Source: a virus
Strand: one strand, 5' to 3'
Virus record (IMG/VR): IMGVR_UViG_3300009537_000052
Length of the DNA stretch: 42,060 bases
The position numbers and the translations under genes are program-made. Positions 15,265-33,026 of this stretch are shown piece by piece (within the stretch, counting starts at the first letter, position 1; each line of letters begins with the position of its first letter). A model generated the notes under the pieces. The model searched no databases, was not told the DNA's origin, and saw only the letters and a list, made by a program, of their open reading frames with translations.

Positions 15265-16088
15265 GGGTTCACTAGCAAGTCGATGAACCACAGCGCGTCG
15301 ACCTTTCGGAGGTGGCGCGCGACCTGGTGCGGGTGCGTGGCGCAGAAGCGTCGGATCGCGCTGCGCTTGATCACGTACGGGTCGCCGCCCTGGGTGGCCG
15401 TCCGCTCCGTCTGCCTTCGCCGATGAGCCAGTAGGCCGAGATGGATCCAGCGCGTGATTACCTTCGTGTCGACGCCGAGCAGCCCCGCGACCTGGGCCGC
15501 GGACAGGTTGTCGTCGCGGTCGCGCATCCCGAGGCGCAGCCGCTTGCGGCGCATGTTGATCGCCGACGGACTACGCCTCACGCCGGACACCTTCAACACG
15601 GCGCGCTGGACCGCCTCGACCGACATCCCTGCCAGGCGCTCGAGCACCTGGTCCTCCTCGGAGGTCCACTCCGGCTGCCGAAAGCGCGGGACGACCAGCC
15701 CGAGCTTTAGCGCCCGCTTCTTCACCCACCACGCCGGCCGCCCCAGCTCCGCCGCCAGCTCGCGCACCTTCCTCGCGCCAGGATTCTCGTAGCACTGGCG
15801 AATCGCCGCATCGATCGACGGGGAGCTCGCCCAGACCCGCGGGCGCCCACCGCGGCGCCCCGTCGAGTCCGGCGCGGCCTGCACGCCGCGCTTCGCGGCC
15901 TGGCAGTAGATCGCCGCGGCCGAGCGTCGCGGCAGGCGGGCGAGGCACCCGTCGAGCCCCTCGGTCGGGTAGTACTCGCGGAGGATGGCGAGCTCCGCCG
16001 AGCTCCATCTCCGGTGCGGCAGCCCCTCCCGGGCCGGGTCGGGGAGCAGCGATCGGGGCGACCGGGCCCCTGGGCTTCGGTCAGGCAT
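15261..16088 (-). CDS. DNA-binding protein with Myb/SANT-like repeats and a C-terminal MerR/excisionase-type HTH (275 aa)
   Basis: RWSSAELAILREYYP and PEWTSEEDQVLERL are W-x2-E-E/D-type repeats. LSAAQVAGLLGVDTKVITRWIHLGLL is an HTH. The gene lies directly upstream of terS. Confidence 0.65.
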   Translation of the reverse strand: MPDRSPGARSPRSLLPDPAREGLPHRRWSSAELAILREYYPTEGLDGCLARLPRRSAAAIYCQAAKRGVQAAPDSTGRRGGRPRVWASSPSIDAAIRQCYENPGARKVRELAAELGRPAWWVKKRALKLGLVVPRFRQPEWTSEEDQVLERLAGMSVEAVQRAVLKVSGVRRSPSAINMRRKRLRLGMRDRDDNLSAAQVAGLLGVDTKVITRWIHLGLLAHRRRQTERTATQGGDPYVIKRSAIRRFCATHPHQVARHLRKVDALWFIDLLVNP

Positions 16089-16120
16089 TTTGCCCGCGCG
16101 TGAATTCGACTGCCCAGGCG

Positions 16121-16168
16121 GTCTGCGCCCCAGGCGACTTCAAAAAAAACGGCATCCGTCTGCGCCCC
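16121..16168. repeat. 11-bp direct repeat gtctgcgcccc (16121-16131 and 16158-16168) flanking an A8/T8 tract (16142-16149)
   Basis: Read directly from the sequence. It lies in the 80-bp gap between the HNH gene and the Myb-like gene. Confidence 0.85.
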
Positions 16169-16504
16169 CTAACCCCACACCTCGCTGGCTGTCTTCCGCG
16201 AGTGGCACGAGTGGCAGAGGCTTTGCAGGTTCTCGTGACGGTCCGACCCGCCAGCGCGACGCGGCTTGATGTGGTCGACGTCGGTAGCCGCGACGATCCG
16301 GCCAGCGGCGTGGCACTCGCGGCACAGCGGCTCCATTCGCAGGTGCCCCTTGGCGAGCCTGCTCCATCGCCGCCCGTAACCGCGGGCATGCGCCGAGTCT
16401 CGCTCCCTGTCCCGCTGCCTGGCGTGACGGCGGCAGCGCGATCCCCGGGCCGCCACGTCGGTGCAGCCCGGCGCCGAGCACAGCCGCGGCGGGAGGTCTG
16501 GCAC
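16169..16504 (-). CDS. HNH endonuclease (111 aa)
   Basis: An N-terminal Cys cluster, then VDHIKPRRAGGSDRHENLQSLCHSCHSRKT. It lies next to the terminase genes, as in HK97-like cos phages. Confidence 0.9.
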   Translation of the reverse strand: MPDLPPRLCSAPGCTDVAARGSRCRRHARQRDRERDSAHARGYGRRWSRLAKGHLRMEPLCRECHAAGRIVAATDVDHIKPRRAGGSDRHENLQSLCHSCHSRKTASEVWG

Positions 16505-16506
16505 CG

Positions 16507-16731
16507 TCAGCCCGCCCGCTTCCTTCGCCCGCGGCTGAACTCGTTGGCGGCCGAGCACGTCGCGAAGTGACTCACCATCGCGGCGCGGTTGCGCTCGCAG
16601 ACGGGATCTCCGGGGCCGAGCCCATCCACGTTGTAGACCGGGGGCCGCGGGTCGAGAGGGATCTTCTTCCCGTCCGGGTCGGTCGCCCACACGATGGACA
16701 GCCCACAGCCTCGGCACACCGATCGCTTCAC
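16507..16731 (-). CDS. Small zinc-finger-like phage protein (74 aa)
   Basis: The GTG at 16731 overlaps the RuvC stop (GTGA). [27 protein letters not shown]...[12 protein letters not shown]; the CxxC...HFxxC pattern is common in phages. Confidence 0.65.
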
Positions 16732-17252
16732 AGCTCCTCCTCCCTCGCCTTGCGCCGCGGCGCGATGGCGTTGTTGACCCGCGCCCACTCGGCGATCCAC
16801 AAGGCGTCGGCTACCGCCTGGTCCTTCACACGCGACAGCTCGACCCAGGGCCACCGCTCGCGTGCCGCGGACAGGATCGCCCGCTTCCGCGCCCCGCGTT
16901 CCTTCGGGCGCCCCTTGCCCCGCAAGGCCAGCGCCACCCACTGAGTGGGCGGCACCAGCACGGTCGGCAGGCCGAGCCCCATGCACACGCCCCGGGCGCA
17001 TCCCCAGGATGCGCCGAAGCTGAACGAGGCCGGTCGACCTTCCCCCGGCCGTGATCGCACCATCTCGATCGCCACCAGAAGGCGTGACACCCCGAGCGCG
17101 GCCGCGGGCTCCGCGAGAACCTCGACGAGCCGCGACGGGTCGCCCGTGTCGACGATTGCACCGCCCACGTGGGGGCCGTTGATCCAGGCCACCGCCCCAG
17201 TCTTCCCCGGGTCGACCCCCAGCACGCACGGCGCGTCCTCCCAGACCATCAC
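16728..17252 (-). CDS. RuvC-family Holliday junction resolvase
   Basis: [15 protein letters not shown] carries the first catalytic Asp motif. VAIEMV follows, and the C-terminal [14 protein letters not shown] is typical of RuvC-like resolvases. Confidence 0.82.
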
Positions 17253-18523
17253 CCAGTCGCCTCCTGCCGCCGCTCGAGCTCCTGCAATGTCTCGCGCAGT
17301 CGCTCAACCTGCTCGGGGTCGGGGGGCCACCTCGCCCCCGAGCGTTTCCACCGCCCCCGCAGGTCCGAGGCGATCCACTCGCGGTCGCCCTCCTTCGCAG
17401 CCAGCCATCGCTCCGCGCTCTCCAGGAGCATCGAGAGCACGGTGTGGCGCACCGAGAGCTCCTCTCCCGGGCGCTGCCGGGTGGCGCGGTCCTCCTGCTC
17501 GCGCCATCGCGTCGCCGCCTCGAGGCGATCGCCCCACCGCAGCGGATCGCAGATCGTCACGACCTCGCTGGAGCGGTCGCGGCCCTCGGGCCAGCCCTCG
17601 GCGCGGAGGTCGCGAGCGAACTTCGGATCGGGGCTCGCCCTCGCCGCGGCCGCCACGAGCTGGACGTCCTCGACGAGCTCTTCGATCGGCGGGCGATCGA
17701 GCGCCTTCCACAGCTGGAGCACGCGGTTGGCATCGGCGCCGACCCGCCGCTGCAGGACGGGACGGCCGCGGATCGAATGCATGATCGTGAGCACGCCGGC
17801 GGCGCACCTCCACGGCGGATCGATGCCAGAGCCGTGCGACCACCGCGGAAGCGGGAGCGTCGGCTCTTGCGTGACCCAAGAGCGATCCTCTGGGACCTCT
17901 TCGGGTGCCGTGTGTGTGCTCAGGAGCGCCCGCGCCCCCGCAGCCGTGCCCGCGCCCGCGCTCACACACTCCGAGGTGGGTGTGGGTGTGGGTGTGGGTG
18001 TGGGGGAGGGAGAGGGTGCGGGAGGGCTCGCCGCGGCGGCGACGTGTCGACGACGTGGCGCCGACGTGGCGCCGACGTGGCGCGGGCCGCTGGGCGCCGG
18101 GGCGGCGACGTGTCGCCGCTTCAGCTCTCCGACCGGGTCGGCGGGGCAGGCGTGCGCGGCGTCCCGGATGTCCTCGTAGCCGACTTTCGCACCGCGGCGT
18201 TCCATCTCCTTGACCAGGCGGTCGAGGACGTACTTGGGCGCGTTGTCGTAGAGGTCGTGGATGACGAGCTGGCCGTCCTCGGCGCGATCGAGGAAGCCGG
18301 CCGCCTCCAGCTCCACCACGAGGGCCTCGGGCTCCCCCTCCCACCCGAGGTGGTACTCGAGCTCGATAGCGTCACCGACCACCGGGTCGCCCTCTGCGTA
18401 GGCGAGGTGCCACATCAGGGTGAGACCCCCGGCCGCGACCGGACGGCAGTTCTCGACGCCTCGACGCTTCAGGCCGGCGCACAGGCGCCGGAACTTTCTA
18501 TGCGAAAGCAGGGTCTCCCTCAC
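17249..18523 (-). CDS. Replisome-organiser / replication-initiator-like protein (424 aa)
   Basis: The N-terminus looks like a winged helix: FRRLCAGLK...[20 protein letters not shown]...[28 protein letters not shown] low-complexity centre ([10 protein letters not shown]) follows, and the C-terminal domain resembles phage replication C-terminal domains. SD AGGAGG lies before the GTG at 18523. Confidence 0.55.
17976..18005. repeat. Hexanucleotide microsatellite (gtgggt) x4 plus one imperfect copy; encodes (PT)5 on the minus strand
   Basis: Read directly from the sequence. Confidence 0.95.
18035..18116. repeat. Iteron-like array: cgacgtggcgc x3 perfect and contiguous (18051-18083), degenerate copies at 18040-18050 and 18106-18116, and a 15-bp direct repeat ggcggcgacgtgtcg at 18035 and 18101
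   Basis: Read directly from the sequence. The period is 11 bp, which is not a multiple of 3, inside the linker of the putative initiator gene. Confidence 0.9.
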
Positions 18524-18600
18524 CCGCGCCTCCTGAGCTTCACGAGCCGCCGCACGTGGGCGAGGCCGCTCGGGGCTAGCGACCAGGTGCTAGCCATCCC

Positions 18601-18846
18601 TCACGGCTGAGCGTCGTCGCCGGTCAGCGCTGCGAGAGCGATGCTCACTCGCTCCTTGAGCGCCGCGAGCTCATCTCGGTCTCGCCCAGACCGGAGCCTG
18701 GCGGCCTGGAGCTCGGCCTCGAGGGCTGAAATGCGGTGGCGGAGCTCCTGCACGAGGGCGCCGTGATCGCTCTGCATCTGGGCGATCTGGGCCTCGAGCG
18801 CATCGAACTCCTCCTGTGTCACCTTCGGTCCTGCTGTTCTGGGCAT
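18601..18846 (-). CDS. Small coiled-coil protein (81 aa)
   Basis: The ATG at 18846 has GAGGAG 7 nt upstream. Heptad-like sequence: EEFDALEAQIAQMQSDHGALVQELRHRISALEAELQAARL. Confidence 0.6.
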   Translation of the reverse strand: MPRTAGPKVTQEEFDALEAQIAQMQSDHGALVQELRHRISALEAELQAARLRSGRDRDELAALKERVSIALAALTGDDAQP

Positions 18847-18870
18847 TGGAGTCTCCTCGGGTTGGGGGTC

Positions 18871-18920
18871 GCCCGGTGGGGGCGCACAGTAACCGCCAGA
18901 CTTTCTATCCCCCACCGGGC
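18871..18920. promoter_or_regulatory. 12-bp perfect inverted repeat gcccggtggggg / cccccaccgggc separated by 26 nt
   Basis: Read directly from the sequence. It lies in the 89-nt gap between the PKD-like gene and the coiled-coil gene. Confidence 0.8.
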
Positions 18921-18935
18921 TTCCCCCCGGTTCGG

Positions 18936-19394
18936 TCAGGGCACCGGCACCTGCGCCTGCGCACGGTCGCACTCGGAACGGTCACCGAACAGGTCGTCGG
19001 TGTTGTGGCATGCGGTCAGCACCACCTCGTAGATGACGCCATCGCAGTCGTTTGGGTTCGAGGAGGTGATCGGCTCCCCATCGTCGCGGCACTGCCAGCG
19101 GTAGAGGTGGCTGGGTGAGCGCTCCCGGAAGAGGCCAGTACCGTCTCCGAACGTCCATTCGAAGGCGTCGCCGCCGCTCGACTGGTTGACGAAGTCGACG
19201 CCGGTGTCACAGCTGCCCGCCCGGCAGTTGCTCGGTTGCTTGCTGAAGCTGAAGCCGGCAGCGATGCCTCCTGGCTCGGTCGGGCTGTCCCCGTCGAACC
19301 ACGAGCATCCCTGCACCACGAGCGTGATAGCGACGATCGCCGCGCCAGTCACGATCGCGAGCAGGTAACCCTTGAACGATTTGCGGATGTTCAT
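18936..19394 (-). CDS. Exported, possibly lipid-anchored, protein with a PKD-like domain (152 aa)
   Basis: The signal MNIRKSFKGYLLAIVTGAAIVAITLVVQGC ends in an imperfect lipobox. VDFVNQSSGGDAFEWTFGDGTGLFRERSPSHLY matches the PKD signature (WxFGDG...H.Y). The protein is Cys-rich. Confidence 0.72.
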   Translation of the reverse strand: MNIRKSFKGYLLAIVTGAAIVAITLVVQGCSWFDGDSPTEPGGIAAGFSFSKQPSNCRAGSCDTGVDFVNQSSGGDAFEWTFGDGTGLFRERSPSHLYRWQCRDDGEPITSSNPNDCDGVIYEVVLTACHNTDDLFGDRSECDRAQAQVPVP

Positions 19395-19735
19395 CAGTCG
19401 TTCTCCTTGAACTTGGTAGCGATGAGTTGGATTCGACGGTCAGCGCTCTCGTCGGCGTCCAGGAAGCCGCGCAGGGCAACCCGGTCGCCGACGCGCACAC
19501 CGAGGCAACGGGCCGCGATCTCCGGGTCACAAAGGATGTCGTAGGTGTCGCCCTCGGAGGCGACGAGCAGGAGCACCCACTCGCCGTTGGCGACGCGATC
19601 GCTGTTCGCGACCACCGCGCCCTTGAGGCTCCACTGGTTCTGCGTCTTGACGACGCGCCAGCCTGCCCACGCCGGCAGGGCGAGCGCCGACGCCAGGGCG
19701 AGGGCGGCGAGGGCTCTGATGCTTCTACCTCTCAT
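19394..19735 (-). CDS. Secreted small protein (113 aa)
   Basis: The ATG at 19735 has GGAAGGAG upstream. Signal MRGRSIRALAALALASALALPAWA|G. The mature part is beta-rich. Its stop overlaps the next ATG by 1 nt. Confidence 0.7.
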   Translation of the reverse strand: MRGRSIRALAALALASALALPAWAGWRVVKTQNQWSLKGAVVANSDRVANGEWVLLLVASEGDTYDILCDPEIAARCLGVRVGDRVALRGFLDADESADRRIQLIATKFKEND

Positions 19736-19754
19736 GCTGGTCTCCTTCCACCGT

Positions 19755-20255
19755 TCAGGCCTCTCCAGGCCCCACGATCGCGAGCAGCGCCACGGCGGCG
19801 CGCTCCGCCCCGTGGGCCAGGGCCTCGTGCTTCTCTCTCGCGCCGATCTCGACGACGCCGCGGCGGACCACCTCGTGGCCCCACCGCCGGTAGCCGAGGA
19901 GGACATCGAGGGCCCTCCTCACCTCGCCCGCAGCGGCCGCGGCATCGGGACCCTGGAGGACTACCAGGGGGCCACCGGGCTGCTCGTAGGCAGCTGCTGT
20001 CGAGCTCTCCATCTCGGTCCTCCTCTCGTCTGGGATCCCGTCAGCCGCGAGCTGGCGGATCCTCGGGCCAACCCACAGCGGGATCGAACCGCCCCGCTCC
20101 CAGGCCGACACCGTGGTGTCACTGACGCGTAGCCGGGAGGCGAGCTGCCGTTGAGAGAGCCCGCGCATCTGACGAAAGACCCGCAGGCCCTCGCCGTCCA
20201 CGCCGCCGAGACTCGTGTCGACGTCGGCGGCGAACAGCGGTAGCGCACCGCTCAC
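19755..20255 (-). CDS. XRE-family HTH regulator with a C-terminal domain of unknown function (166 aa)
   Basis: The GTG at 20255 overlaps the upstream stop (GTGA). LRVFRQMRGLSQRQLASRLRVSDTTVSAWERGGSIP is a canonical XRE HTH. Confidence 0.75.
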   Translation of the reverse strand: MSGALPLFAADVDTSLGGVDGEGLRVFRQMRGLSQRQLASRLRVSDTTVSAWERGGSIPLWVGPRIRQLAADGIPDERRTEMESSTAAAYEQPGGPLVVLQGPDAAAAAGEVRRALDVLLGYRRWGHEVVRRGVVEIGAREKHEALAHGAERAAVALLAIVGPGEA

Positions 20256-20773
20256 CGGCGCCTCCCCCGGAGATGCCGCCCGCGCGCGTCCTCGCCCGCG
20301 AGCTTCGCCGCAGCACGCTCGAGCGCCTGGCGGACCTCCTCGGTCCCGAAGTAGCTGCTCTTTCCACGCTGCTGCCAGAGGCGAATCGACGCCGGCGTCG
20401 TCCACCACGATCCGCTCCCGTTGTGCCACAGCTCCGGCCAGCGGATCCGCTGCACCGGGTCGCTCGACCGCGCGTCGCGCAGGATCGTCTTCGGGCTCCG
20501 CTGCAGCAGCCCGGCGAGGAGGTCGATGGGCACCAGGTCGAGCGCACAGGCCGACGTCTCGAGCAGCAGCCGACGCGTCGCCTTCACCTCGCCACGCAGC
20601 TCCCCCACCTGCTCGCTGAGCCTCTCGATCACCGCGAGGAGCCCGGGGACATCGAGAGAGCCGGGCCCGGGGCGAGGAGGGGCGCCCCGGGCCCCATCGC
20701 GGACTGCACCGCCGTCCCGGCGTGAGGAGCCGCACGGGCCGGCGATCGCGAAGGAGCTGGCGCTCTCGGCCAT
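20252..20773 (-). CDS. Hypothetical protein (up to 173 aa); coiled-coil segment followed by a possible DNA-binding C-terminus
   Basis: The protein-like part is LLAVIERLSEQVGELRGEVKATRRLL...LLQRSPKTILRDARSSDPVQRIRWPELWHNGSGSWWTTPASIRLWQQ. The N-terminal 40 aa are low complexity, so the start is uncertain. Confidence 0.55.
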   Translation of the reverse strand: MAESASSFAIAGPCGSSRRDGGAVRDGARGAPPRPGPGSLDVPGLLAVIERLSEQVGELRGEVKATRRLLLETSACALDLVPIDLLAGLLQRSPKTILRDARSSDPVQRIRWPELWHNGSGSWWTTPASIRLWQQRGKSSYFGTEEVRQALERAAAKLAGEDARGRHLRGRRR

Positions 20774-20778
20774 CAGCG

Positions 20779-21279
20779 TCAGCTCCGCTCCCTACTACTC
20801 TGATCACGGACATCCACGAGGCGTGCCTCCAGGCGATAGATGCGATTGCGAAGCTCGCGGGTCTCCCGGAGGATCGCCTCCACTTCGGCCGGCGTCACGC
20901 GGCCGTCGTCGAGAGCCACCTCGGCCTCGACGAGGACGCGCCCGGCGGCGCCGGCGACCGCTATCACGGCGTGCATCAAGCCCTCCTCGACACCACCGAC
21001 GTCCCCCGGGTCGATCACGACCAGGCCGAGCTGCTCGGCGACGAAGCACACGGGGCCGATTGCCTTCTGTCGGCCCTGCTGACACAGCAACGCCGCGCGC
21101 GTGAAGCGCAGCAGCTGGTAGGCCGGCCCCGGGCGCTCCGCCTGGGGCTCCCCCCACGCCTGCACCCGGCGCTCCGAGCACCCGAGCTCGGCGGCGATCT
21201 CCGGCGCGTGACCCCAGGTGGCCTCCTGGGTGACGAGCGCCGCCGCGCGGAGCAGCGATCTCGGGCCCCGGCCGCTCAC
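20779..21279 (-). CDS. Phage regulatory protein, CII/CP76-like (166 aa), tentative
   Basis: The GTG at 21279 overlaps the upstream stop (GTGA). HTH-like APEIAAELGCSERRVQAW. C-terminal ALDDGRVTPAEVEAILRETRELRNRIYRLEARL resembles the CP76-type layout. Confidence 0.45.
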   Translation of the reverse strand: MSGRGPRSLLRAAALVTQEATWGHAPEIAAELGCSERRVQAWGEPQAERPGPAYQLLRFTRAALLCQQGRQKAIGPVCFVAEQLGLVVIDPGDVGGVEEGLMHAVIAVAGAAGRVLVEAEVALDDGRVTPAEVEAILRETRELRNRIYRLEARLVDVRDQSSRERS

Positions 21280-21542
21280 GCCTCCCATCCCTCCCATCCC
21301 CCTGACGGCGGCATCGACCCGTGCCGCTCGAGCGCCAGGGCGATCAACATGGTGATCCGGGCACGGCGCCTCTCGCCGATCCCCTTGAGCTTGCCGAGCG
21401 TCCCCTCCTGCTCCATCCGCTCGACCCGCCACAGCGTCGTCGCCGGATCGAGACCGGCGGCGAGCAGCGCCGTCGAGATGTCACTCCACACGGGCCACGA
21501 GCGCAGCTCGAGGATCGTCGTCGATAGGGTGGGGGCGCTCAT
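21276..21542 (-). CDS. Small helix-hairpin-helix protein (88 aa)
   Basis: The ATG at 21542 overlaps the patatin stop (ATGA). LGKLKGIGERRRARI is an HhH motif. Confidence 0.6.
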   Translation of the reverse strand: MSAPTLSTTILELRSWPVWSDISTALLAAGLDPATTLWRVERMEQEGTLGKLKGIGERRRARITMLIALALERHGSMPPSGGWEGWEA

Positions 21543-22465
21543 GCCCCCTCGCTCCCGAGCCACCGGCGCAGAGCCGCCGCGCCGGCGACCTCGAGGGCCT
21601 CTGCGTGCTTCGCGACGGTCCGGAACGACGTCGCCTTGACGCCCGGCGGCGCGATGACGCGCACGATGCGCGGCCACAGCGCCCGAGGCACGTGCGATCG
21701 GTTGGCGGCCGCCACGGCGATCGAGACGAGACGCGCCGCGAGGTCCCAGGGCCAGCGGCCCGGCGGCTCACGGTCGGCCATCATCTCGAGCCGCGTGTCG
21801 ACACGCACGCCGAGGACCGTCTCGGGCGGTACGCGCCGGCGGTCGAAAACGTCGATCGGCATGTTCCAGGTCAGGCCACCGTCGACCAGGCGCAGGCCGC
21901 CGGCGACGACCACGGGCTCCCACCACAACGGGATCGCCATGGACGCGAGCACGGCCTCCCAGACCGGCGACCCGGAGAGCCCCATGGGGCCGAGGAGGAT
22001 GGGCCTACCTCGCGTCACGTCCGTCGCCGTGACGTGGAGCAGCCGCCCGCGCTCGGCGAGCTGCACGAACGTGACTTCGGGCGGGTAGCCCGAGCGTGCC
22101 CCCACCCGCGCGACCATCTCGCGCAGCCAGCGGCGAGGCTGCTCGAGGCTCCGGAAGCCGCACCGGCGCATCATCCGGATCGGCGAACGCCTCCCGGCCA
22201 GCTTCTCCCAGGGGGCGGCGGCGAGCTCGGCGTCGATCTCCGCCGCCGTCGCCCCAAGGGCCCCCAGCGCCGCGAGGATCGCACCGGCGCTCGTCCCCGA
22301 CCACTCGTTGACGCGCCCGAGCACACCCCAGGCGTCGAGCTGGCGCACGATGGGCACGTACGAGACCCCGAGCACGCCCCCGCCTTCGAACGCGAGGCGC
22401 GTCACATCGGCCACCTTCGCTGGTGCCCCCGGGCGCTCGCCGTTGCTGCGCGGATCGACCATCAC
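21539..22465 (-). CDS. Patatin-like phospholipase (308 aa)
   Basis: FEGGGVLG (oxyanion-hole GGGxxG), GTSAG (GxSxG nucleophile) and VDGG (catalytic Asp) occur in the canonical order. Confidence 0.9.
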   Translation of the reverse strand: MMVDPRSNGERPGAPAKVADVTRLAFEGGGVLGVSYVPIVRQLDAWGVLGRVNEWSGTSAGAILAALGALGATAAEIDAELAAAPWEKLAGRRSPIRMMRRCGFRSLEQPRRWLREMVARVGARSGYPPEVTFVQLAERGRLLHVTATDVTRGRPILLGPMGLSGSPVWEAVLASMAIPLWWEPVVVAGGLRLVDGGLTWNMPIDVFDRRRVPPETVLGVRVDTRLEMMADREPPGRWPWDLAARLVSIAVAAANRSHVPRALWPRIVRVIAPPGVKATSFRTVAKHAEALEVAGAAALRRWLGSEGA

Positions 22466-23205
22466 CGGAGCACCGCTAGGCCCTCGGTCACGCGGCCGGC
22501 GAGAAATCCAGCCACGTTGCTGATGGCCTCGAGCTCCCAGAGCCCGTCACACACCAAGTGCAGAGAGATGACGAACCCGCCCTCGCCCTTCTTCGCCCGC
22601 AGCAGGTACTGCGAGACCGGCTGCGTCACCTCGGGGAAGGTCCGGTAGGGAGCGAGCTGCCACGTCGGTGAGACCGTCTCGCGGGCCAGGCGAACGGTCC
22701 CGGCCTTCACCGCCATCTCCTGGCTGATCCCGTCGTCGGCCACCCTCACCTCGTCCTGCGTCGACACCCGCGCCAGGAGCTCGAGGAGCTCGGCGCGCTG
22801 CCCCGAATCGGAGCACGCCGTGCGCAGGTAGATCTGCGCCTCCTCGAGGCTCCACCACTGGCCGAACCGGTCGAGCTGGCGCGGCGGCGTCGCCTTCGCA
22901 CGCACGAGACACTCGCGCTTGCGCTCGCGCCGCTTCAGCGGGCCGAGCAACGACACGCTCGTCGGCGACTCCACCCACACCAGGTGACGCGACGGGTCTC
23001 CCTCGCCGCGCTCGTCGACCAAGGCATCGTCGATGTCCGCATCCAGGAAGCCGACGAAACCCTCGAGCGTCGAGAGGACGATGGGGTCCGCGAGGGGCTC
23101 CGCCGGCGGCAGGTAGGCGGGCAGCGTGCTGTACTCGATTCCGCCGAGAACGATCGGCTTCGCCTGCGTGAGCTCGCCGATGTACTCCATCGCTTCTCGG
23201 ATCAC
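22462..23205 (-). CDS. Conserved-looking phage protein of unknown function (247 aa)
   Basis: GTGA overlap at the start and ATGA overlap at the end. The C-terminal motif LAPYRTFPEVTQPVSQYLLRAKK reminds me of DUF2303/YfdQ-type prophage proteins (unverified). Confidence 0.65.
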   Translation of the reverse strand: MIREAMEYIGELTQAKPIVLGGIEYSTLPAYLPPAEPLADPIVLSTLEGFVGFLDADIDDALVDERGEGDPSRHLVWVESPTSVSLLGPLKRRERKRECLVRAKATPPRQLDRFGQWWSLEEAQIYLRTACSDSGQRAELLELLARVSTQDEVRVADDGISQEMAVKAGTVRLARETVSPTWQLAPYRTFPEVTQPVSQYLLRAKKGEGGFVISLHLVCDGLWELEAISNVAGFLAGRVTEGLAVLR

Positions 23206-23549
23206 GAGGCACCTCCGTTCGGCGTCGCCGCGGCGAAGAGGTCGACCTGCCGCGGGTCGTGCTCGTAGGCCACCAGGCGCCGCCCGGTGCCCATGCGCGA
23301 TAGAAACACCCGGCTCGTCGAGGCCACCGGGCCCGCGAGCTTCGTCGAGACCGTCGTCTCGACCTTCGCCGAGCTGCGGTCTCCGTCCGGCCGGAACGCG
23401 ACCTTGATCGTGATCGAGCGGACCTTCTCCGGCTCCGTATTGGGGTCGTCAATGTTGTCGACGACGCGCTGGAGCTCGTCGGCGAAGCGCTCGCGAAGCG
23501 CGCCGTGCGCGAACCCCTCGAGCGTCAGCTCTCCCTCTGCGATGTTCAT
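23202..23549 (-). CDS. Phage protein of unknown function (115 aa)
   Basis: The ATG at 23549 has GGGAGGAG upstream. MNIAEGELTLEGFAHGALRERFADELQRVVDNIDDPNTEPEKVRSITIKVAFRPDG. Confidence 0.65.
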   Translation of the reverse strand: MNIAEGELTLEGFAHGALRERFADELQRVVDNIDDPNTEPEKVRSITIKVAFRPDGDRSSAKVETTVSTKLAGPVASTSRVFLSRMGTGRRLVAYEHDPRQVDLFAAATPNGGAS

Positions 23550-23860
23550 CTCGCTCCTCCCTGCTGCTCCGGTAGGGCGCCGAGCAGCCCGCTGCAGCCC
23601 TTGCAGGTGCAGAGCCGTTCGGCGGCGTTCTCGACGATGGCGACGGACCCCGGCAGGACCTGGCGGTAGCACTCGACGCACCACCACCAGGAGCCAGGCG
23701 TGACCGGCGGGACGGCGTGGCGCGGGTGCCCGCGCGGCGCCGTCCCTTCCCCCTCAGCGGGGGCGTCAGACGGGGCACCATGCGACGGAGTCGGCGGCAC
23801 CGCCTCCTCCACCTCGCCCCTGTGGCATCGGTAGAACGGGATGAGCCCCGGGATCGTCAT
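23546..23860 (-). CDS. Small Cys-rich (zinc-ribbon-like) protein (104 aa)
   Basis: ATGA overlaps at both ends. Cys motifs: YRCH...WWWCVECY...LCTCKGC. Confidence 0.55.
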   Translation of the reverse strand: MTIPGLIPFYRCHRGEVEEAVPPTPSHGAPSDAPAEGEGTAPRGHPRHAVPPVTPGSWWWCVECYRQVLPGSVAIVENAAERLCTCKGCSGLLGALPEQQGGAR

Positions 23861-24066
23861 CGCGGATCGTCCTCCTGCATCGGGTCGCCCCAGCAGTCCC
23901 AGCAGAGGGTGAGCCCGCTCCGAACGTCGAGCACCTGCGCCGCGCCCGAGAGGGGAAGCGCTGCTCCACAGCCGTCGCACATCAGCCGCCCGTCCAGCAC
24001 CTCACCGAGGGCGTCGTCGAGCACCGCCGCAACCGCCTTCGGCTCGCCTGGGCGCCCCGGCTTCAT
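23857..24066 (-). CDS. Small zinc-ribbon protein (69 aa)
   Basis: ATGA overlaps at both ends. Cys motifs: CDGCG...CWDCW. Confidence 0.55.
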   Translation of the reverse strand: MKPGRPGEPKAVAAVLDDALGEVLDGRLMCDGCGAALPLSGAAQVLDVRSGLTLCWDCWGDPMQEDDPR

Positions 24067-24293
24067 CGCCCCTCGCCCCCCTGGCCAGCCTCGTCCAGCG
24101 CCGGGTACAGGTCCTCGGGGCGCACGCGGCAGACCCGGAAGCGAAAGCCGCAGGCGTGACACCGCGCGGCCGACTCCAGGCTGAGACCTCGGCTCACCGA
24201 CACGACGCGGAACAGGTGCCCGGCAGAAACCTCTCCCAGCTCGTTCGAGAAGACGCGGGTCGACCGCACGAGACGCCCCACCCACTGGCGCAT
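24063..24293 (-). CDS. Hypothetical small protein (76 aa; alternative GTG start at 24308)
   Basis: MRQWVGRLVRSTRVFSNELGEVSAGHLFRVVSV.... Its stop overlaps the next ATG. Confidence 0.45.
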   Translation of the reverse strand: MRQWVGRLVRSTRVFSNELGEVSAGHLFRVVSVSRGLSLESAARCHACGFRFRVCRVRPEDLYPALDEAGQGGEGR

Positions 24294-24301
24294 CGGTAGC
24301 T

Positions 24302-24601
24302 TCAGCACGCGCTCCCCCTCCCAGGCTCGCCCGCGTTTCCCGCGGCAGCGTTGAGCAGCCCGGCGATCTCGATGAGGCGCTTCGGCCCGATCCCGGGCAG
24401 CGGCCCCTGGGCAACGCCACCGAGCTCGCGCACCCGGAGCGACTGCGGCACCCCGGCGCGGGTCAGGTAGCGGGCGAGCTCGTACCAGCGCGAGCGCTCG
24501 AGCGCGGTCGGCCGGGGCTCCAGGAGCTCGCCGATGGTCGTCGCCGGCGTGACGGGGCGCCCGTCCTCCACCGCCCCCGGGGGATTGCGCATCTCGGTCA
24601 C
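24302..24601 (-). CDS. Small helix-hairpin-helix protein (99 aa)
   Basis: The GTG at 24601 overlaps the upstream stop (GTGA). GPLPGIGPKRLIEIAGLL is an HhH motif. Confidence 0.6.
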   Translation of the reverse strand: MTEMRNPPGAVEDGRPVTPATTIGELLEPRPTALERSRWYELARYLTRAGVPQSLRVRELGGVAQGPLPGIGPKRLIEIAGLLNAAAGNAGEPGRGSAC

Positions 24602-24978
24602 GGCTCCTGGGCCTCTGCGTCCGGGCTCGCGGCGACCGGAACAGCCGGCCCCTCGGTCGGCGGCGCCTCACCGAAGAAGTGAAGTTGGGTCCCGCGGATC
24701 TGGATCGCGGCCTCGAGGTCCAGGGCGACCCGCAGGCACGCGGCCACGTGCGCGGAGAAGCTGGAGAGCGAGCGCGTCCCCTTCAGCGCCGTGCACGACT
24801 CGCAGAACGCGACGAGCGCGTCCGTGCGGGGGGCTCCCTCCGGGAGCGGTGTCCGATCGTCCTCGACGACGGCGAACGTGAACGGGTCCATGTCGGCGCC
24901 GCAGCAGAAGCAGTCGCCGCCACTCTCCGCCCAAACGCGGGCGCGCTCGTGCGTGGTGATGCGCCGACGCTTCGCCAT
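24598..24978 (-). CDS. HNH-like protein with substituted catalytic residues (126 aa)
   Basis: RARVWAESGGDCFCCG and ALVAFCESCTALKG align by eye with HNH blocks. The position that normally holds D-H reads ED, and the CN position reads CT. Confidence 0.5.
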   Translation of the reverse strand: MAKRRRITTHERARVWAESGGDCFCCGADMDPFTFAVVEDDRTPLPEGAPRTDALVAFCESCTALKGTRSLSSFSAHVAACLRVALDLEAAIQIRGTQLHFFGEAPPTEGPAVPVAASPDAEAQEP

Positions 24979-24981
24979 CGA

Positions 24982-25251
24982 TCAGCCCCCGGGGCCTCGC
25001 GGCGCCGGATCCGGGCGAGGGCCACCGGGCGCGGCGCCGGCGAGGTCGTCCGCGCGCACGGAGCTCGCGCCGGCGACCAACGACAGCCGCTGCTCATCGA
25101 ACCACTGCGCCTCGATCGGCTTCCCGTCGTGCAGCTCCGTCGCCTCGACGCCGTACCGGGCGCATCCATGCACCCATTCGGTCCGGGCGACGGCGACCCC
25201 CTCGAAGCCCGTGACGGTGTCTCGAACCCGCGAACCCAGCCTGATCCTCAT
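24982..25251 (-). CDS. Small conserved phage protein (89 aa)
   Basis: The ATG at 25251 overlaps the methyltransferase stop (ATGA). MRIRLGSRVRDTVTGFEGVAVARTEWVHGCARYGV...KPIEAQWFDEQRL is a pattern I recognise from many phages. Confidence 0.65.
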   Translation of the reverse strand: MRIRLGSRVRDTVTGFEGVAVARTEWVHGCARYGVEATELHDGKPIEAQWFDEQRLSLVAGASSVRADDLAGAAPGGPRPDPAPRGPGG

Positions 25252-26195
25252 GCTTGCCTCCAGAACATCGGCCACCGGGATCGGAGACCGTCAACGGCCG
25301 ACGGCGAGAGCCACAGGCTCTCCGTCGCCCCTCCGCCCCTCAGCGTCTGCGTCCGCTTGTCGGCGCGTGCCCAATCGGCGTAGAGCCGATCGTAGAGCTC
25401 GCTTCGGTAGCCCGAGAGCACGACCATGCCCCGCACCCGGTGGAGGGTCTCCGCGAGCTCCTCGTGCTCCTCAGCCGTCCCGAGCTCGTGCTTGTAGGCG
25501 TCGCGCCCCCATCGGTGCGACCTGGTGGTCTTGGGGTACGGCGGGTCGACGTAGAAGCACGTGTGGGGCGTGTCGAAGCGGGCGATCACCTCGAGCGCCG
25601 GGGAGCACTCGAGCTGCACCGTGCGAAGCCGCGCGACGATCGCCCAGAGGTGCTCGACGTCGGCAAACTCGTGCGCGGCCGTCGTCTTTCTCGACGTGCC
25701 TTTGCAGTGGCGCCATCCCGATTTGTTGGGCCGCAGACCGGCGTGGAAGGCCTGCCAGCAGCACACGTAGAGACGACGAGCCGCCTCTAGCTCGTCGCTC
25801 TCCCACAGATCGCCGCGATCGCGCGCCGCCTCGTACTCCGCCCTGGCGAACGGCGTCAACTCGATCGCCCGGACGAGCTCCGCAGTCCTGCGGCGGAGCA
25901 CGCGAAAGAACGACACCAACTCCCGATCGAGGTCGTTGAGCACCTCGGACGGAACAGGCGCCTTTTGGAGGAGCACGCTCGCCGCGCCGGCGAATGGCTC
26001 GACGTAGCAGCCGTGCGGCGGGAGGTGATCGCAGATCCACGGGCCGAGACGCCACTTGCCACCGTAGTAGCGCAGCAGCGGGCGCCGAGGCCGTGGCGTC
26101 GTCGCCAGCATCTCCCCCGGCACGTGCGGAATCGCCGCCACCCCGCACGACTCTCCCGCGGCGCTCGCGCGTAGCGAGGTGGTGAGCTCACCCAT
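25248..26195 (-). CDS. N6-adenine DNA methyltransferase, Dam/D12 class (315 aa)
   Basis: LLRYYGGKWRLGPWICDHLPPHGCYVEPFAGAASVLL is the AdoMet-binding block. VDPPYP is the DPPY catalytic motif. No adjacent restriction endonuclease was recognised. Confidence 0.9.
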   Translation of the reverse strand: MGELTTSLRASAAGESCGVAAIPHVPGEMLATTPRPRRPLLRYYGGKWRLGPWICDHLPPHGCYVEPFAGAASVLLQKAPVPSEVLNDLDRELVSFFRVLRRRTAELVRAIELTPFARAEYEAARDRGDLWESDELEAARRLYVCCWQAFHAGLRPNKSGWRHCKGTSRKTTAAHEFADVEHLWAIVARLRTVQLECSPALEVIARFDTPHTCFYVDPPYPKTTRSHRWGRDAYKHELGTAEEHEELAETLHRVRGMVVLSGYRSELYDRLYADWARADKRTQTLRGGGATESLWLSPSAVDGLRSRWPMFWRQA

Positions 26196-26523
26196 GCGCC
26201 ACCTCCTCCACCTCCTCGTCGATCGGCTGCGCGCGCTCGTCCGACGGCGGCGCGCCGGGGGCCCACTCGCCTCTGTCGAGCCCAATCGTCTTGCGCCGTC
26301 GGGCCTCGAGGTCGAAGACCTCCGCCTCGCACTCACGCGCCGTCATCCGCCGAGCCGCGTACGACGCGAAGCTGACGAGCACGAGGGCGTGGAACGTCGA
26401 CGGGAAGCCGCCGGCGGCGAGCGCCTCGAGGGCGCGCTTCGCCGACGCCGTGACGATGCGCCGCACCTGGCGCGGGTGGCGCGGCAGCGCGTCCGGATCG
26501 CTGGCGATGGCCTTCCGGGGCAT
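26188..26523 (-). CDS. Hypothetical early protein (111 aa)
   Basis: Protein-like composition. Contiguous with its neighbours. Confidence 0.5.
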   Translation of the reverse strand: MPRKAIASDPDALPRHPRQVRRIVTASAKRALEALAAGGFPSTFHALVLVSFASYAARRMTARECEAEVFDLEARRRKTIGLDRGEWAPGAPPSDERAQPIDEEVEEVAHG

Positions 26524-26715
26524 CTACCGACGCCTCCCCTTGATCTGCTCTGCCAGGCGACGTTCGAATCGCCGCGCCAGCTCTGCGCGCCCCATCCGTC
26601 CGCCGAGCGCGCCCTCCTCCATCTCGATCCCGATCTCGGCGAGCTTCTCGGGAAGGTCCTCGAGGCCCTCGATTCGGACCGTGACGTCGTCGGCCACCTT
26701 TCTACCCTCGGGCAC
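26524..26715 (-). CDS. Hypothetical early protein (63 aa)
   Basis: Abuts both neighbours with no gap. Sequence is charged and helical. Confidence 0.5.
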   Translation of the reverse strand: MPEGRKVADDVTVRIEGLEDLPEKLAEIGIEMEEGALGGRMGRAELARRFERRLAEQIKGRRR

Positions 26716-26955
26716 CTACTCCACCTCCGCGCCGACCAGCGAGGGGGCCGAGAGCTCGACGGCGCGGGCGCTGTAGACCATCGTCGCCTCGCCGGTCACC
26801 TCGAACCTCTCGACCGACGAGTCCCCGGGGCCGCGGACGCACACGTGGACGACCCCGCCCTCGGCCAGCATCTCCTGACCCTCGACGTAGCGCCCCGCGG
26901 CCTCCGCGGCGCTCCGTGCCCAGATCAGCGCCAGGGTCGCGTACTCGACCGGCAT
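26716..26955 (-). CDS. Hypothetical early protein (79 aa)
   Basis: Abuts both neighbours with no gap. Confidence 0.5.
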   Translation of the reverse strand: MPVEYATLALIWARSAAEAAGRYVEGQEMLAEGGVVHVCVRGPGDSSVERFEVTGEATMVYSARAVELSAPSLVGAEVE

Positions 26956-27225
26956 CTACGACACCCCCTCTGTGACGAGCGAGCGGCTCTCCTCCTCCGT
27001 CCCCATCAGCGACACGAAACCGACCAGCTCGCGGCGCAGCCCCTCGACCATCTCGACGTCGGCATCCGTCGGCTCCCCGCCGGGCTCCAGCCGGCTGGTG
27101 AGCGAGTAGAAGAGGGCGGCGGCGCCGGCGTAGAAGGCTCGGCGTGTCTCAGCCCGCTGTACCTCTGGCGCGTGTGCGGGGAGGACCTCGCGGGAGTACG
27201 AGAGCCAGTGCTCGTGCAGCGTCAC
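26956..27225 (-). CDS. Hypothetical early protein (89 aa)
   Basis: GTGA overlap at the start. MTLHEHWLSYSREVLPAHAPEVQRAETRRAFYAGAAALFYSL. Confidence 0.55.
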   Translation of the reverse strand: MTLHEHWLSYSREVLPAHAPEVQRAETRRAFYAGAAALFYSLTSRLEPGGEPTDADVEMVEGLRRELVGFVSLMGTEEESRSLVTEGVS

Positions 27226-27434
27226 GGGCGGCCCTCCTCGGACGTGTCCGCGCAGGCCAGCTCAGCGCCCACCAGCGCGAGCGCCATCTCGCCGACGCCG
27301 TCTTCCGAGCCGTCGTCGTCGGCGGCGGCGAGCAGGCGGCGCAGGTTCGCGGCGAGCTCCTCGATCTCCTCCCGCCGAGGGTGCTCGGCGATCGCGCCGG
27401 CGATCATCAGGCGGGTGGCCTCCTCGCGGCTCAT
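27222..27434 (-). CDS. Hypothetical early protein (70 aa), paralogue of 27431..27703
   Basis: ATGA overlap at the start. RREEIEELAANLRRLLAAADDDG...MALALVGAEL. Confidence 0.5.
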   Translation of the reverse strand: MSREEATRLMIAGAIAEHPRREEIEELAANLRRLLAAADDDGSEDGVGEMALALVGAELACADTSEEGRP

Positions 27435-27703
27435 CTCGCAAGCTCCGTCTCTACGGCGGCAGCGTCGGCCTGCTCCCGGAGCTCGAGCGTGACGAGCGTC
27501 AGCGCAGCTCTCGCGACAACCGGGTCGGCGCCGGCGACCAGGTCGGCCACCTCGGCCGCGAGACGGTCGATCTCGGCTCGCCGAGAGTCGCCCGTGAGGA
27601 TCTGCGACAGCAACAGCCGCTGGGCCGAGGGGCGATGGACCTCCCGAAGCCGCGCCAAGACCTGCTCGGCCCGAAGCGGCGGAAAGGCCGCCCCTGCCCT
27701 CAC
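27431..27703 (-). CDS. Hypothetical early protein (90 aa), paralogue of 27222..27434
   Basis: GTGA overlap with the Cro-like stop. SRRAEIDRLAAEVADLVAGADPVVARAALTLVTLEL. Confidence 0.5.
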   Translation of the reverse strand: MRAGAAFPPLRAEQVLARLREVHRPSAQRLLLSQILTGDSRRAEIDRLAAEVADLVAGADPVVARAALTLVTLELREQADAAAVETELAR

Positions 27704-27939
27704 GCCACCTCCTCAGACACCGACTCGACCTGGTCGCCGAAAAGCTCGTCGAGGGTCAGGTCGGGCCAGCGCTGGCGAAAGTGCGCAACGATGGCGTTCG
27801 CCTCGGCGACGTTCCAACGGATCTCGCCGCCGAGCTTCCTCGAAACCGTGGCGGCCGTCAGGCCGAGGACGCGGGCCACTTCTACCTGGGTGACGTCGTG
27901 CTCCCGAAGGAACGATTCGAAGCGGGGCGGGTTACGCAT
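27700..27939 (-). CDS. Cro-like HTH early regulator (79 aa), leaderless or near-leaderless
   Basis: MRNPPRFESFLREHDVTQVEVARVLGLTAATVSRKLGG contains an XRE-type HTH. The ATG at 27939 lies 10 nt downstream of the -10 box, with no SD. The TTG start at 27978 in the track is actually the -35 box. Confidence 0.72.
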   Translation of the reverse strand: MRNPPRFESFLREHDVTQVEVARVLGLTAATVSRKLGGEIRWNVAEANAIVAHFRQRWPDLTLDELFGDQVESVSEEVA

Positions 27940-27946
27940 TGCGTAA
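27932..27946. promoter_or_regulatory. Operator-like perfect 15-bp palindrome TTACGCA-T-TGCGTAA centred on the Cro-like ATG
   Basis: Read directly from the sequence. A related site, TACGC-C-TGCGT, lies at 27954-27964 inside the promoter spacer. Confidence 0.7.
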
Positions 27947-27949
27947 ACA

Positions 27950-27978
27950 ACCATACGCCTGCGTTGCGCATATGTCAA
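27950..27978 (-). promoter_or_regulatory. Early lytic promoter: -35 TTGACA (27978-27973), 17-nt spacer, -10 TATGGT (27955-27950)
   Basis: Read on the minus strand: TTGACA tatgcgcaacgcaggcg TATGGT tgtttacgca ATG. Confidence 0.7.
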
Positions 27979-28031
27979 GTCCCCTACTGCATCCTGTTAC
28001 GGTGACCGCAATCAGGAGGGCTGGCGCCCCC

Positions 28032-28412
28032 GTGGGCTTCGCGGACCGCCTCCGTGCCGCCATGAGGGCGCGAGGGCTCACGCAAGCCCAGGTCGCCGAG
28101 ATCCTGGGCGTCAGCGACGCCGCCGTCAGCCGCTGGTGCACGGGAGACAACGCCCCCGACCTCGCCACACTGGCGCGGCTGAGCGGGATCACCAGAACGC
28201 CCACGGACGACCTTCTCGGCCTCCCTGGCCCGGACGGCATCGCAGCGAAGCAGCTGCGGGCGATCAAGGTGGAGCTGCGCAGCGTTCAGGCCCGCCTCGG
28301 CGTGATCATCGCCGCGAGCGAGTCGGCGCGCGCGGCCGTGGGCGAGGTGCTTGACTCTCAGCATGACGACGGAGCACCCACACCAGGCGATTCCGCCAAG
28401 CGAAAGCGATGA
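28032..28412 (+). CDS. CI-like XRE-family repressor without a peptidase domain (126 aa; alternative starts at 27972 and 28002)
   Basis: It is divergent from the Cro-like gene. AGGAGG lies at 28014-28019. VGFADRLRAAMRARGLTQAQVAEILGVSDAAVSRWCTGDNAPDLATLARL is a canonical HTH N-terminus. Confidence 0.72.
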   Translation: MGFADRLRAAMRARGLTQAQVAEILGVSDAAVSRWCTGDNAPDLATLARLSGITRTPTDDLLGLPGPDGIAAKQLRAIKVELRSVQARLGVIIAASESARAAVGEVLDSQHDDGAPTPGDSAKRKR

Positions 28413-28560
28413 GCGCTCGCCGCAGCGACGCAGTCCCCTCCGGGTCATGGCTTCCATCCCGCTCGAGCAGGTCACTCGCCACCCTCGCGGCCTCCTCGAG
28501 ATCACCCGCGGCAACGGCTGCTCGCACACGCGCCACCATCACGGCCTCTTCGCCATCCAT
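28306..28560 (-). CDS. Hypothetical protein (84 aa), convergent with and overlapping the 3' end of the repressor gene
   Basis: The ATG at 28560 has GGGAGG 6 nt upstream. The first 50 aa are protein-like (MDGEEAVMVARVRAAVAAGDLEEAARVASDLLERDG). The last 35 aa overlap the repressor gene and are Arg/Pro-rich. Confidence 0.35.
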   Translation of the reverse strand: MDGEEAVMVARVRAAVAAGDLEEAARVASDLLERDGSHDPEGTASLRRALIAFAWRNRLVWVLRRHAESQAPRPRPRAPTRSRR

Positions 28561-32806: not shown

Positions 32807-32847
32807 GCCGCATCGGCCAACCGCGACCAAACAGGCGGGGTGAGCAA

Positions 32848-32891
32848 GAATCGACGAAGGGCGCCTGCGTACGCCAGGCGCCCTTCGATTC
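32848..32891. terminator. Strong hairpin (11 + 6 bp stem, 3-nt bulge, 7-nt loop) ending the plus-strand array
   Basis: gaatcg-acg-aagggcgcctg cgtacgc caggcgccctt-cgattc. No U tract follows. Confidence 0.6.
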
Positions 32892-33026
32892 CCGCCCGGG
32901 TTCTACCCCCACCGTGGGTCTCTATGACCTGGGCACGGCCGAGCCCGCTTGGCCGCTCATCTCTGCGCCGACGGGCCCATCCGCCCGCGACTCGCGCGAG
33001 ATTCTACACCCCGCAGCTCCGGATTC

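Follow-up and report, generated by a model that had tools for sequence, protein, structure and literature searches.

A patatin-like phospholipase gene in the early operon of a temperate phage has close relatives next to endolysin genes

The DNA analyzed here, referred to as the window, is the whole 42,060-nucleotide (nt) stretch of the IMG/VR virus record IMGVR_UViG_3300009537_000052. The minus strand of the window carries, at positions 21539–22465, a gene for a patatin-like phospholipase that is very probably intact, acts on its own, and is unrelated to the products of the adjacent genes. The closest relatives of the enzyme form a clade of phage patatins, and most of those with a readable gene context are encoded right after an endolysin. 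It is possible that the window protein has a role related to host lysis, a reading that, judged from the gene context of the relatives, has at best an even chance of being correct. Phage patatins have been described previously in phage WO, Burkholderia prophages, and giant viruses, and the enzyme family is an ordinary one. However, judging from the literature that could be searched, a phage patatin clade tied to canonical endolysins, with no detectable spanins and with one member displaced to an early operon, has apparently not been described before.

Family, active site, and fold of the lipase

The lipase is 308 amino acids (aa) long if translation starts from GTG at position 22465, or 307 aa long if it starts from ATG at 22462. 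The upstream start is favoured by the N-terminal sequence PAKVADVT, which aligns with that of one of the close relatives (P0004). The 308-aa protein matches the Pfam family Patatin (PF01734) with an expectation value (E) of 3.5e-24 and a score of 86.5 bits (cut-off 27.7), and the match spans positions 1–190 of the 191 in the profile. The three patatin motifs occur in the canonical order of glycine-rich oxyanion hole, GxSxG nucleophile, and DG[GA] aspartate. The oxyanion-hole motif FEGGGVLG (22367–22390, minus strand) forms residues 26–33, the nucleophile elbow GTSAG (22283–22297, minus strand) forms residues 57–61 with Ser59, and the catalytic aspartate motif VDGG (21875–21886, minus strand) forms residues 194–197. 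Among 23 clade members, there is no variation at residues G57, S59, A60, and G61; D195, G196, and G197 are also invariant, and E27 and G28–G30 are invariant or nearly so. An earlier note on this DNA, made from the sequence alone, had described the patatin as catalytically intact, and the family match and the motifs bear this out.

All 18 residues that are invariant in the 23-member alignment of the clade are present in the window protein, including R221, W264, L291, and G295 in its C-terminal part. Because every clade-invariant residue has been kept, several of them within the C-terminal 100 residues, the window gene does not appear to be a decaying copy. Neither a signal peptide nor a transmembrane segment was detected in the 308-aa protein, which is net basic, with 40 lysine and arginine residues and 29 aspartate and glutamate residues. 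The protein is predicted to be a catalytically competent, cytoplasmic, single-domain patatin-like phospholipase with a Ser59–Asp195 dyad and a GGG oxyanion hole.

The AlphaFold2 (AF2) model of the lipase has a predicted local distance difference test score (pLDDT) of 81.4 and a predicted template-modelling score (pTM) of 0.84. The Foldseek comparison of the model, which the earlier note had proposed as a check, found solved patatin folds with E values down to 1e-13. The best matches were AbCapV, PlpD, and CapE (E 1e-13 to 1e-11, TMq 0.6–0.67), and all 32 fold matches in the PDB at E ≤ 0.001 belong to the patatin family. When a sequence profile was searched against solved proteins, VipD (95.8 bits), PlpD (79.8 bits), and ExoU (72.9 bits) all scored above CapV. 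These three are the closest solved proteins by sequence profile and share the catalytic motifs of the window protein. However, PlpD, VipD, and ExoU have additional domains for secretion, translocation, or the binding of host factors, and their targets are eukaryotic or outer membranes, whereas the phage protein consists of the catalytic domain alone and lacks a signal peptide.

An exact-sequence look-up of the window patatin returned no record, and megablast and tblastn searches of GenBank phages with the region and the patatin gave no match even at E ≤ 1. The 50,697 GenBank phage records contain no relative of the patatin. Therefore, the clade is invisible in cultured phages and is known only from metagenomes.

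Genes surrounding the closest relatives of the lipase

An exhaustive HMMER search identified 5,239 patatins at E ≤ 0.001, of which 18 representative clusters had E < 1e-30, and the window protein nests among these clusters in a neighbour-joining tree. The gene contexts of 13 close relatives, which are 35–44% identical to the window protein, were read, and every close relative that could be placed lies on a phage-like contig. The patatin gene is located directly, or one gene, downstream of an endolysin gene in at least seven of the 13 contexts, and the endolysins belong to four families. In three contexts (P0010, P0003, and P0002) a gene for a protein with a transmembrane segment and a coiled coil is followed by a SleB-type endolysin of the Hydrolase_2 family, the stop codon of which is overlapped by the patatin gene; the cassette follows the tail-fibre genes and is the last part of the late operon. 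The patatin gene directly follows that of an Amidase_3 endolysin in P0011, a Phage_lysozyme endolysin in P0014, and a GH108 muramidase in P0015, and is separated from a GH108 muramidase gene by a gene for a 197-aa protein in P0005. In P0004 and P0016, an XhlA/phrog_689 holin is encoded three to four genes upstream, and the patatin gene closes the end of the late operon. A lysozyme homologue is also encoded just upstream of a more distant patatin that is 24% identical to the window protein (L290).

Repeated adjacency to endolysins of four unrelated families in otherwise different phages is what classically marks a gene as part of the lysis cassette. The endolysins of these cassettes, the Amidase_2 endolysin of the window, and the holin of L005 were used as tblastn queries against loci with distant patatins (≤33% identity), and a match near the patatin was found only in L021 and L290. 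Therefore, the association with endolysins looks specific to the clade, within the limits of so few queries.

In L276, L004, L279, L280, L282, and L283, the gene upstream of that of the endolysin encodes a small protein (88–148 aa) with one N-terminal transmembrane helix and a long coiled coil. One of the transmembrane and coiled-coil proteins of these cassettes has weak matches to Rz-like spanins (E 0.004). The proteins encoded upstream of the patatin in L282 and L283 were considered as lytic transglycosylases on account of an ES...Q motif recognized by eye; they match no Pfam family and, in PHROG, only phrog_3108 of 'unknown' function, and they were not counted as endolysins.

Proposed function in host lysis

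A lysis-related role is suggested for the window protein because most of the readable contexts of the clade place the patatin right after an endolysin, and the 'lysis aid' that the earlier note had listed among several roles thus gains comparative support. The lipase would hydrolyze phospholipids of the host membranes as an accessory step of lysis, attacking the inner membrane, the outer membrane, or both once the holin and endolysin have acted. The gene would have landed by mosaic insertion in the Cro-side early operon, between the pair of genes of families phrog_997 and phrog_1029 and the gene of a CII-like regulator. The lipase would be translated through the same type of stop/start overlap that is used at many gene junctions of this genome, and would be held latent until late in infection.

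The lysis of Gram-negative bacteria is understood as the successive work of a holin, an endolysin, and a spanin, and only rarely is the last step carried out differently. The recurrent order of endolysin and patatin genes, which holds for four endolysin families in cassettes where no lipoprotein spanin was detected, suggests that the membrane is breached enzymatically, by lipid hydrolysis. More speculatively, and with well under an even chance of being right, the phage-specific clade of bare patatins may be a hitherto unrecognized third component of the lysis cassette in phages that infect diderm bacteria and lack spanins, providing a membrane-lipid step beside at least four endolysin families; the window copy would have moved to the early operon and be held latent there, perhaps by the 88-aa protein encoded downstream of it.

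The mechanism would follow a logic analogous to that of mycobacteriophage LysB and of the patatin-based lysis postulated for phage WO. The gene of LysB, a lipid esterase, adjoins that of the endolysin LysA; the enzyme has a cutinase-like alpha/beta hydrolase fold, and its substrate is the mycolyl-arabinogalactan ester. The clade resembles this system in that a lipid-ester hydrolase directly follows the endolysin and would attack an outer lipid barrier as an extra step of lysis. However, the window protein has a patatin fold, and its host is probably a diderm of the Gram-negative type.

A patatin-based lytic cassette has been put forward, as an untested proposal, for Wolbachia phage WO (Bordenstein & Bordenstein 2022, PMC9203015; Kent et al. 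2011, PMC3173496), and a lipid-hydrolyzing breach has so far been hypothesized only for the peptidoglycan-less host of that phage. Phage WO is similar to the clade in encoding a patatin-like phospholipase with a proposed role in lysis. The WO patatin adjoins a small 'holin-like' protein with an N-terminal transmembrane segment and a coiled coil, and a similar protein is encoded upstream of the endolysin in relatives of the window gene. However, in phage WO the patatin is proposed to stand in for an endolysin, which that phage lacks, whereas members of the clade occur together with canonical endolysins of four families, and the window phage encodes an Amidase_2. The WO patatin adjoins holin-like and ankyrin genes upstream of the tail module, and the window patatin has no such neighbours. 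Furthermore, the window patatin, unlike that of WO, lies outside the lysis cassette, and its likeness to WO is one of description.

The lysis cassette of the window phage is located at the end of the late operon. It includes the Amidase_2 endolysin (33302–33721, minus strand; Pfam E 1.7e-15, phrog_1493 endolysin), and beside it candidate holins with several transmembrane segments (34061–34534 and approximately 33748–34070). A simple search of positions 32800–34700 found no open reading frame (ORF) with a lipobox, and hence no candidate o-spanin. The slot just downstream of the endolysin, which is filled by the patatin in the relatives, is empty in the window.

Several observations speak against a role of the window protein in lysis. 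Whereas most clade members with a readable context follow the endolysin gene where the late operon ends, the window gene is part of the Cro-side early operon, approximately 11 kb away from the endolysin gene; the window protein belongs to the clade by its 35–44% identity and by having all of the clade-invariant residues. Exceptions to the lysis context are found among the relatives as well. In one of them (L201, 8040–8885), a patatin that is 38% identical to that of the window is encoded between a head-tail adaptor (phrog_195) and a tail-completion/Neck1 protein (phrog_26), an unusual location for a lipase, and the contexts of L007 and L299 are ambiguous. In P0012 and P0013, the patatin gene is preceded by those of a transmembrane and coiled-coil protein and of an unannotated phrog_3108 protein. 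The adjacency was read from 13 contexts, three of which come from one phage lineage, and the argument for lysis in the clade as a whole is drawn from gene context. The search that found no o-spanin-like ORF with a lipobox in any frame of the cassette strand in 11 patatin cassettes and the lysis region of the window, a result that favours the lysis reading, used a crude regular expression for a signal peptide and lipobox. The promoter scan that places the lipase in the early operon used an E. coli-type consensus on a genome with approximately 70% guanine-cytosine (GC) content. The host is likely a diderm, judging only from the large terminase, the closest relatives of which are in Proteobacteria phages (Marinobacter 51%, Burkholderia 49%, and Brucella 48%).

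The early-operon copy raises the question of how a cytoplasmic phospholipase stays harmless until lysis. Latency would be needed because a phospholipase produced early in the cytoplasm has immediate access to the inner membrane, which also weighs against the lysis role, as any mechanism of latency in the window phage is putative. ExoU and VipD need host cofactors. CapV is inactive until cyclic GMP-AMP (cGAMP)-driven filamentation (PMC12480259). Latency is common in the patatin family.

The genes overlapping with the lipase gene very probably belong to separate units

The earlier note had grouped the lipase with its neighbours in a chain of four translationally coupled genes, and had put the group forward as an undescribed module in which the coupled partners might control the lipase. 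The ORFs of the 115-aa protein (23202–23549), the 247-aa protein (22462–23205), the lipase, and the 88-aa protein (21276–21542) are all present on the minus strand as described, and the frame profile of GC content at third codon positions (GC3) supports all four (21276–23549) as coding. The 4-nt overlaps between them are real as well, although the junction at 22462–22465 reads GTGATG, not ATGA, and gives a 4-nt overlap if the lipase starts from GTG at 22465 or a 1-nt overlap if it starts from ATG at 22462. However, the chain does not end with these four genes. A Cys-rich ORF of 104 aa without a family match (23546–23860, minus strand) adjoins the 115-aa gene upstream and overlaps it by ATGA, and the gene of the CII-like regulator (20779–21279, minus strand) overlaps the 88-aa gene downstream by GTGA at 21276–21279. 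According to the gene calls made here, overlaps of 4 nt occur at 16 of the 55 same-strand junctions of the window. Since so many junctions share the same type of overlap, the overlaps are barely informative about functional coupling; they are a genome-wide packing habit and no evidence of a functional unit.

Co-occurrence of the lipase with its neighbours, which the earlier note had suggested checking across phages, is zero in both directions. Approximately 190 loci with patatin relatives were examined with 8 kb of flanking sequence on each side (29 from IMG/VR, three obtained through exact-protein look-ups, 80 genomic, and 80 metagenomic), and none of them contains homologues of the 115-aa, 247-aa, 88-aa, CII-like, or 173-aa proteins within 8 kb of the patatin. 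No homologue of a neighbour was found either in the 5-kb flanks of a further 41 IMG/VR patatin loci. Conversely, there is no patatin in the 118 GenBank phages with a 247-aa homologue or in any of 80 IMG/VR loci with one. The 115-aa and 247-aa genes are thus widespread without the patatin, which is the first half of the outcome that the earlier note had named as speaking against its module. Because co-occurrence is zero both ways, the block falls apart into separate pieces, namely a conserved phage gene pair, a lipase gene that was inserted, the orphan ORF, and the gene of a regulator. The four-gene arrangement is an accident of mosaic gene order, and the false lead of a four-gene module is thereby removed.

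The 115-aa protein (phrog_997, E 1.7e-23) and the 247-aa protein (phrog_1029, E 5.9e-39) are the first and second products of a conserved two-gene phage module. A word-indexed homologue search with the 115-aa protein gave one match. Homologues of the 247-aa protein were found in 118 GenBank phage records, mostly of Firmicutes phages, and in at least 596 IMG/VR stretches. Among the 80 best IMG/VR loci, which range from 28 to 69% GC, 77 have a 115-aa homologue directly upstream of the 247-aa homologue, and three annotated phages have the same gene order. The genes that follow the pair vary, and include those of an SMC-like ATPase in Dragolir, a single-stranded DNA-binding protein and RecT in vB_CpeS-1181, small ORFs in Javan585, and DnaB and others in high-GC contigs. 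The pair of phrog_997 and phrog_1029 is among the most widespread uncharacterized early-gene modules met in this analysis.

The 115-aa protein has no Pfam match at E ≤ 0.1, and hence none to the winged-helix family of the replication terminator protein (RTP), and a sequence search of the PDB with it returned noise. Because of the missing Pfam and PDB matches, the name 'replication terminator protein' that the database gives to phrog_997, an inherited annotation, looks unfounded. A PDB sequence search with the 247-aa protein returned only noise as well. The AF2 model of the 247-aa protein (pLDDT 85.7) has no significant fold analogue in the PDB; the best match, to the C-terminal domain of MotA (E 0.1), was rejected. 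In BFVD, the model matches models annotated as DUF2303 (E 9e-6 to 6e-5, TM-scores 0.41–0.47). The 247-aa protein thus resembles DUF2303/YfdQ distantly in its fold and also in being a phage early-region protein, YfdQ being a cryptic-prophage family. However, it has no Pfam match at E ≤ 0.1, DUF2303 included, belongs to phrog_1029, and is paired with phrog_997. Over-expression of the yfdQRST cluster of E. coli inhibits the initiation of replication (PMC4776307).

The 88-aa orphan ORF directly downstream of the lipase gene (21276–21542, minus strand) possibly encodes a small DNA-binding protein. The helix-hairpin-helix (HhH) label that it had been given could not be verified, as its only Pfam match is a sub-threshold one to HTH_24 (E 0.011); its stretch GKLKGIGERRRA is, by eye, an imperfect fit to the HhH consensus. 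It has no match in PHROG, NCBIfam, or PADLOC, and no homologue in GenBank phages, in IMG/VR, or near any of the patatin relatives examined. HhH-like GIG motifs (LPGIGPKRLIEIAGLL and LGKLKGIGERRRARI) are found in two small early proteins, that encoded at 24302–24601 (minus strand) and the 88-aa protein itself, both of which are below every Pfam threshold. Other relatives of the phage were sought through the 88-aa ORF and the CII-like protein, with the aim of finding an empty site between the 247-aa and CII-like genes, and none were found.

Alternative explanations of the lipase

The place of the lipase gene on the Cro side, in an early operon that also holds genes for a methylase, regulators, and replication, would suit an enzyme that remodels or takes over the host membrane early in infection, independently of lysis, by releasing fatty acids or lysolipids, changing the membrane for replication or assembly, or blocking competing phages. 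The net basic charge of the protein would be suited to anionic membranes, and members of the clade are found in more than one genomic context. However, most of them belong to late lysis cassettes, no partner genes of lipid metabolism were found in the window, and there is no precedent for such a function in the literature searched. Early remodelling is therefore considered unlikely. It is even harder to credit, though it was considered, that the lipase is packaged in the virion and helps to deliver the genome across the host membranes. The patatin of L201 is encoded between head-tail adaptor and tail-completion genes, and the authors of the phage WO study considered 'entry or exit' (PMC3173496), but the window gene, as part of the early operon, is distant from the structural genes, most relatives are found behind an endolysin and not behind structural genes, and no structural-protein domain is fused to the lipase. 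An entry function is very improbable. The same applies to the four-gene module, in which the 115-aa, 247-aa, or 88-aa proteins, singly or together, would serve as sensors, regulators, or immunity partners of the lipase. The contiguous 4-nt overlaps favour it, an early cytoplasmic lipase plausibly needs an inhibitor, and the 88-aa orphan is otherwise unexplained. However, the lack of co-occurrence, the frequency of the same overlap across the genome, and the conservation of the 115/247 pair at 28–69% GC with variable genes downstream all contradict it, and an 88-aa ORF without homologues offers no conserved partner. For the 115/247 pair the module is essentially excluded, and what is left of it is the putative restraint of the lipase by the 88-aa protein.

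The lipase may also be a moron that benefits the lysogen, as an effector of abortive infection, superinfection exclusion, or virulence similar to CapV/CapE or to the patatins of Burkholderia prophages. The phage is temperate, the best structural match of the lipase is AbCapV (TMq 0.66, E 9e-14), and there are weak PADLOC matches to phospholipase effectors (≤27.6 bits, in the generic core only). CapV and CapE are, like the window protein, single-domain bacterial patatins of approximately 300 aa with a C-terminal helical region (TMq 0.61–0.67). The catalytic residues S58 and D192 of AbCapV are equivalent to the Ser and Asp of the window protein, and its cyclic-dinucleotide binding residues are F147, K149, D159, E207, and R279 (PMC12480259). 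However, the window protein scores 16.7 bits against the NCBIfam equivalog CBASS_lipase (NF041079), which has a cut-off of 200, and 15.3 against the antiphage lipase DS2_1, which has a cut-off of 400. The sequence profiles place the clade nearer to VipD, PlpD, and ExoU than to CapV, and the fold similarity to PlpD is about equal. The earlier note had recognized no cyclase or sensor partner, and indeed the 10 flanking proteins include no cyclase, such as a cGAS/DncV-like nucleotidyltransferase (CD-NTase), no sensor, and no match to a defence family; the other ORFs of the early operon are annotated otherwise or are shorter than 130 aa. The lipase, which is phage-encoded within a lytic operon, is thus not CapV-like in its context, and membership in the CapV group, considered because of the top Foldseek match, was rejected because the NCBIfam score is low, other solved patatins rank higher by profile, and no cyclase is present. 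The patatin morons of Burkholderia prophages (Ronning et al. 2010, PMC2920897) share with the window gene that they are non-core accessory genes of temperate phages. However, they were interpreted as virulence morons of the lysogen, whereas the window gene is part of a lytic operon, locked into it by overlapping codons and without a promoter or terminator of its own, and its relatives are in late operons, which are silent in lysogens. A benefit to the lysogen is accordingly a doubtful explanation, with a small chance of being correct.

Genome organization of the window phage

The window has an exact direct terminal repeat of 99 nt (1–99 and 41962–42060), and the tape-measure ORF (38903–42058 and 1–1294, minus strand) crosses the junction of the repeat. 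Therefore, the window is a complete, circularly assembled phage genome of approximately 41,961 bp. Genes were called with a GC3 model and annotated with Pfam and PHROG. The phage is temperate; the last gene of the lysogeny-side operon encodes an integrase (30854–31954, plus strand). A DUF6098 protein (29084–29569, plus strand; E 2.4e-20) is encoded upstream of the integrase in the same operon, among unannotated ORFs, and this region is a candidate for a lysogen-expressed moron region.

A Cro-like gene (27700–27939, minus strand) is located opposite a divergent ORF of an XRE-type repressor on the plus strand. In front of the Cro-like gene is a sigma-70-like promoter, TTGACA-17-TATGGT (27950–27978, minus strand), which is presumed to be the start of the early operon that holds the lipase. 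It is the only promoter-like site in the range 16000–28500, and the scan of this range found no promoter or terminator belonging to the lipase itself. As the sole promoter-like site is upstream of the Cro-like gene, the lipase is probably expressed in the lytic cycle, and the Cro-side operon agrees with the placement of the gene on the lytic side in the earlier note. The long early operon runs on the minus strand from the promoter-like site (27978–27950) to a terminator-like hairpin with a T-run (16161–16147, minus strand), which presumably ends it. Packaging, head, and tail genes follow, and then the lysis cassette. The early operon also encodes a D12-class N6-adenine DNA methyltransferase (25248–26141, minus strand; Pfam E 2.9e-22, phrog_56 E 7.5e-62) and the CII-like regulator at 20779–21279, which is of the CP76 type (Pfam Phage_CP76 E 6.4e-6, phrog_101 E 2.6e-9).

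Two small Cys-rich ORFs with zinc-ribbon-like CxxC motifs and no family match lie directly upstream of the 115-aa gene (23546–24060, minus strand). Elsewhere in the early operon, two overlapping genes at 18936–19735 (minus strand) encode exported proteins without a family match, one of 113 aa with a cleavable signal peptide (...LPAWA/G) and the other a Cys-rich protein of 152 aa with a lipoprotein-like N-terminus (LVVQGC). The two were considered as spanins and rejected, as neither their order nor their sizes fit and the lipobox (VVQGC) is imperfect; they may act in superinfection exclusion or in modifying the cell surface. Between the endolysin and the integrase-side genes there is a 3' fragment of a tRNA (approximately 33138–33190, minus strand) with the T-arm GGTTCGAATCC and an acceptor end, ...GCACCA. 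ARAGORN detects no complete tRNA at this position, and the fragment probably serves as the attP core when the phage integrates into a tRNA gene.

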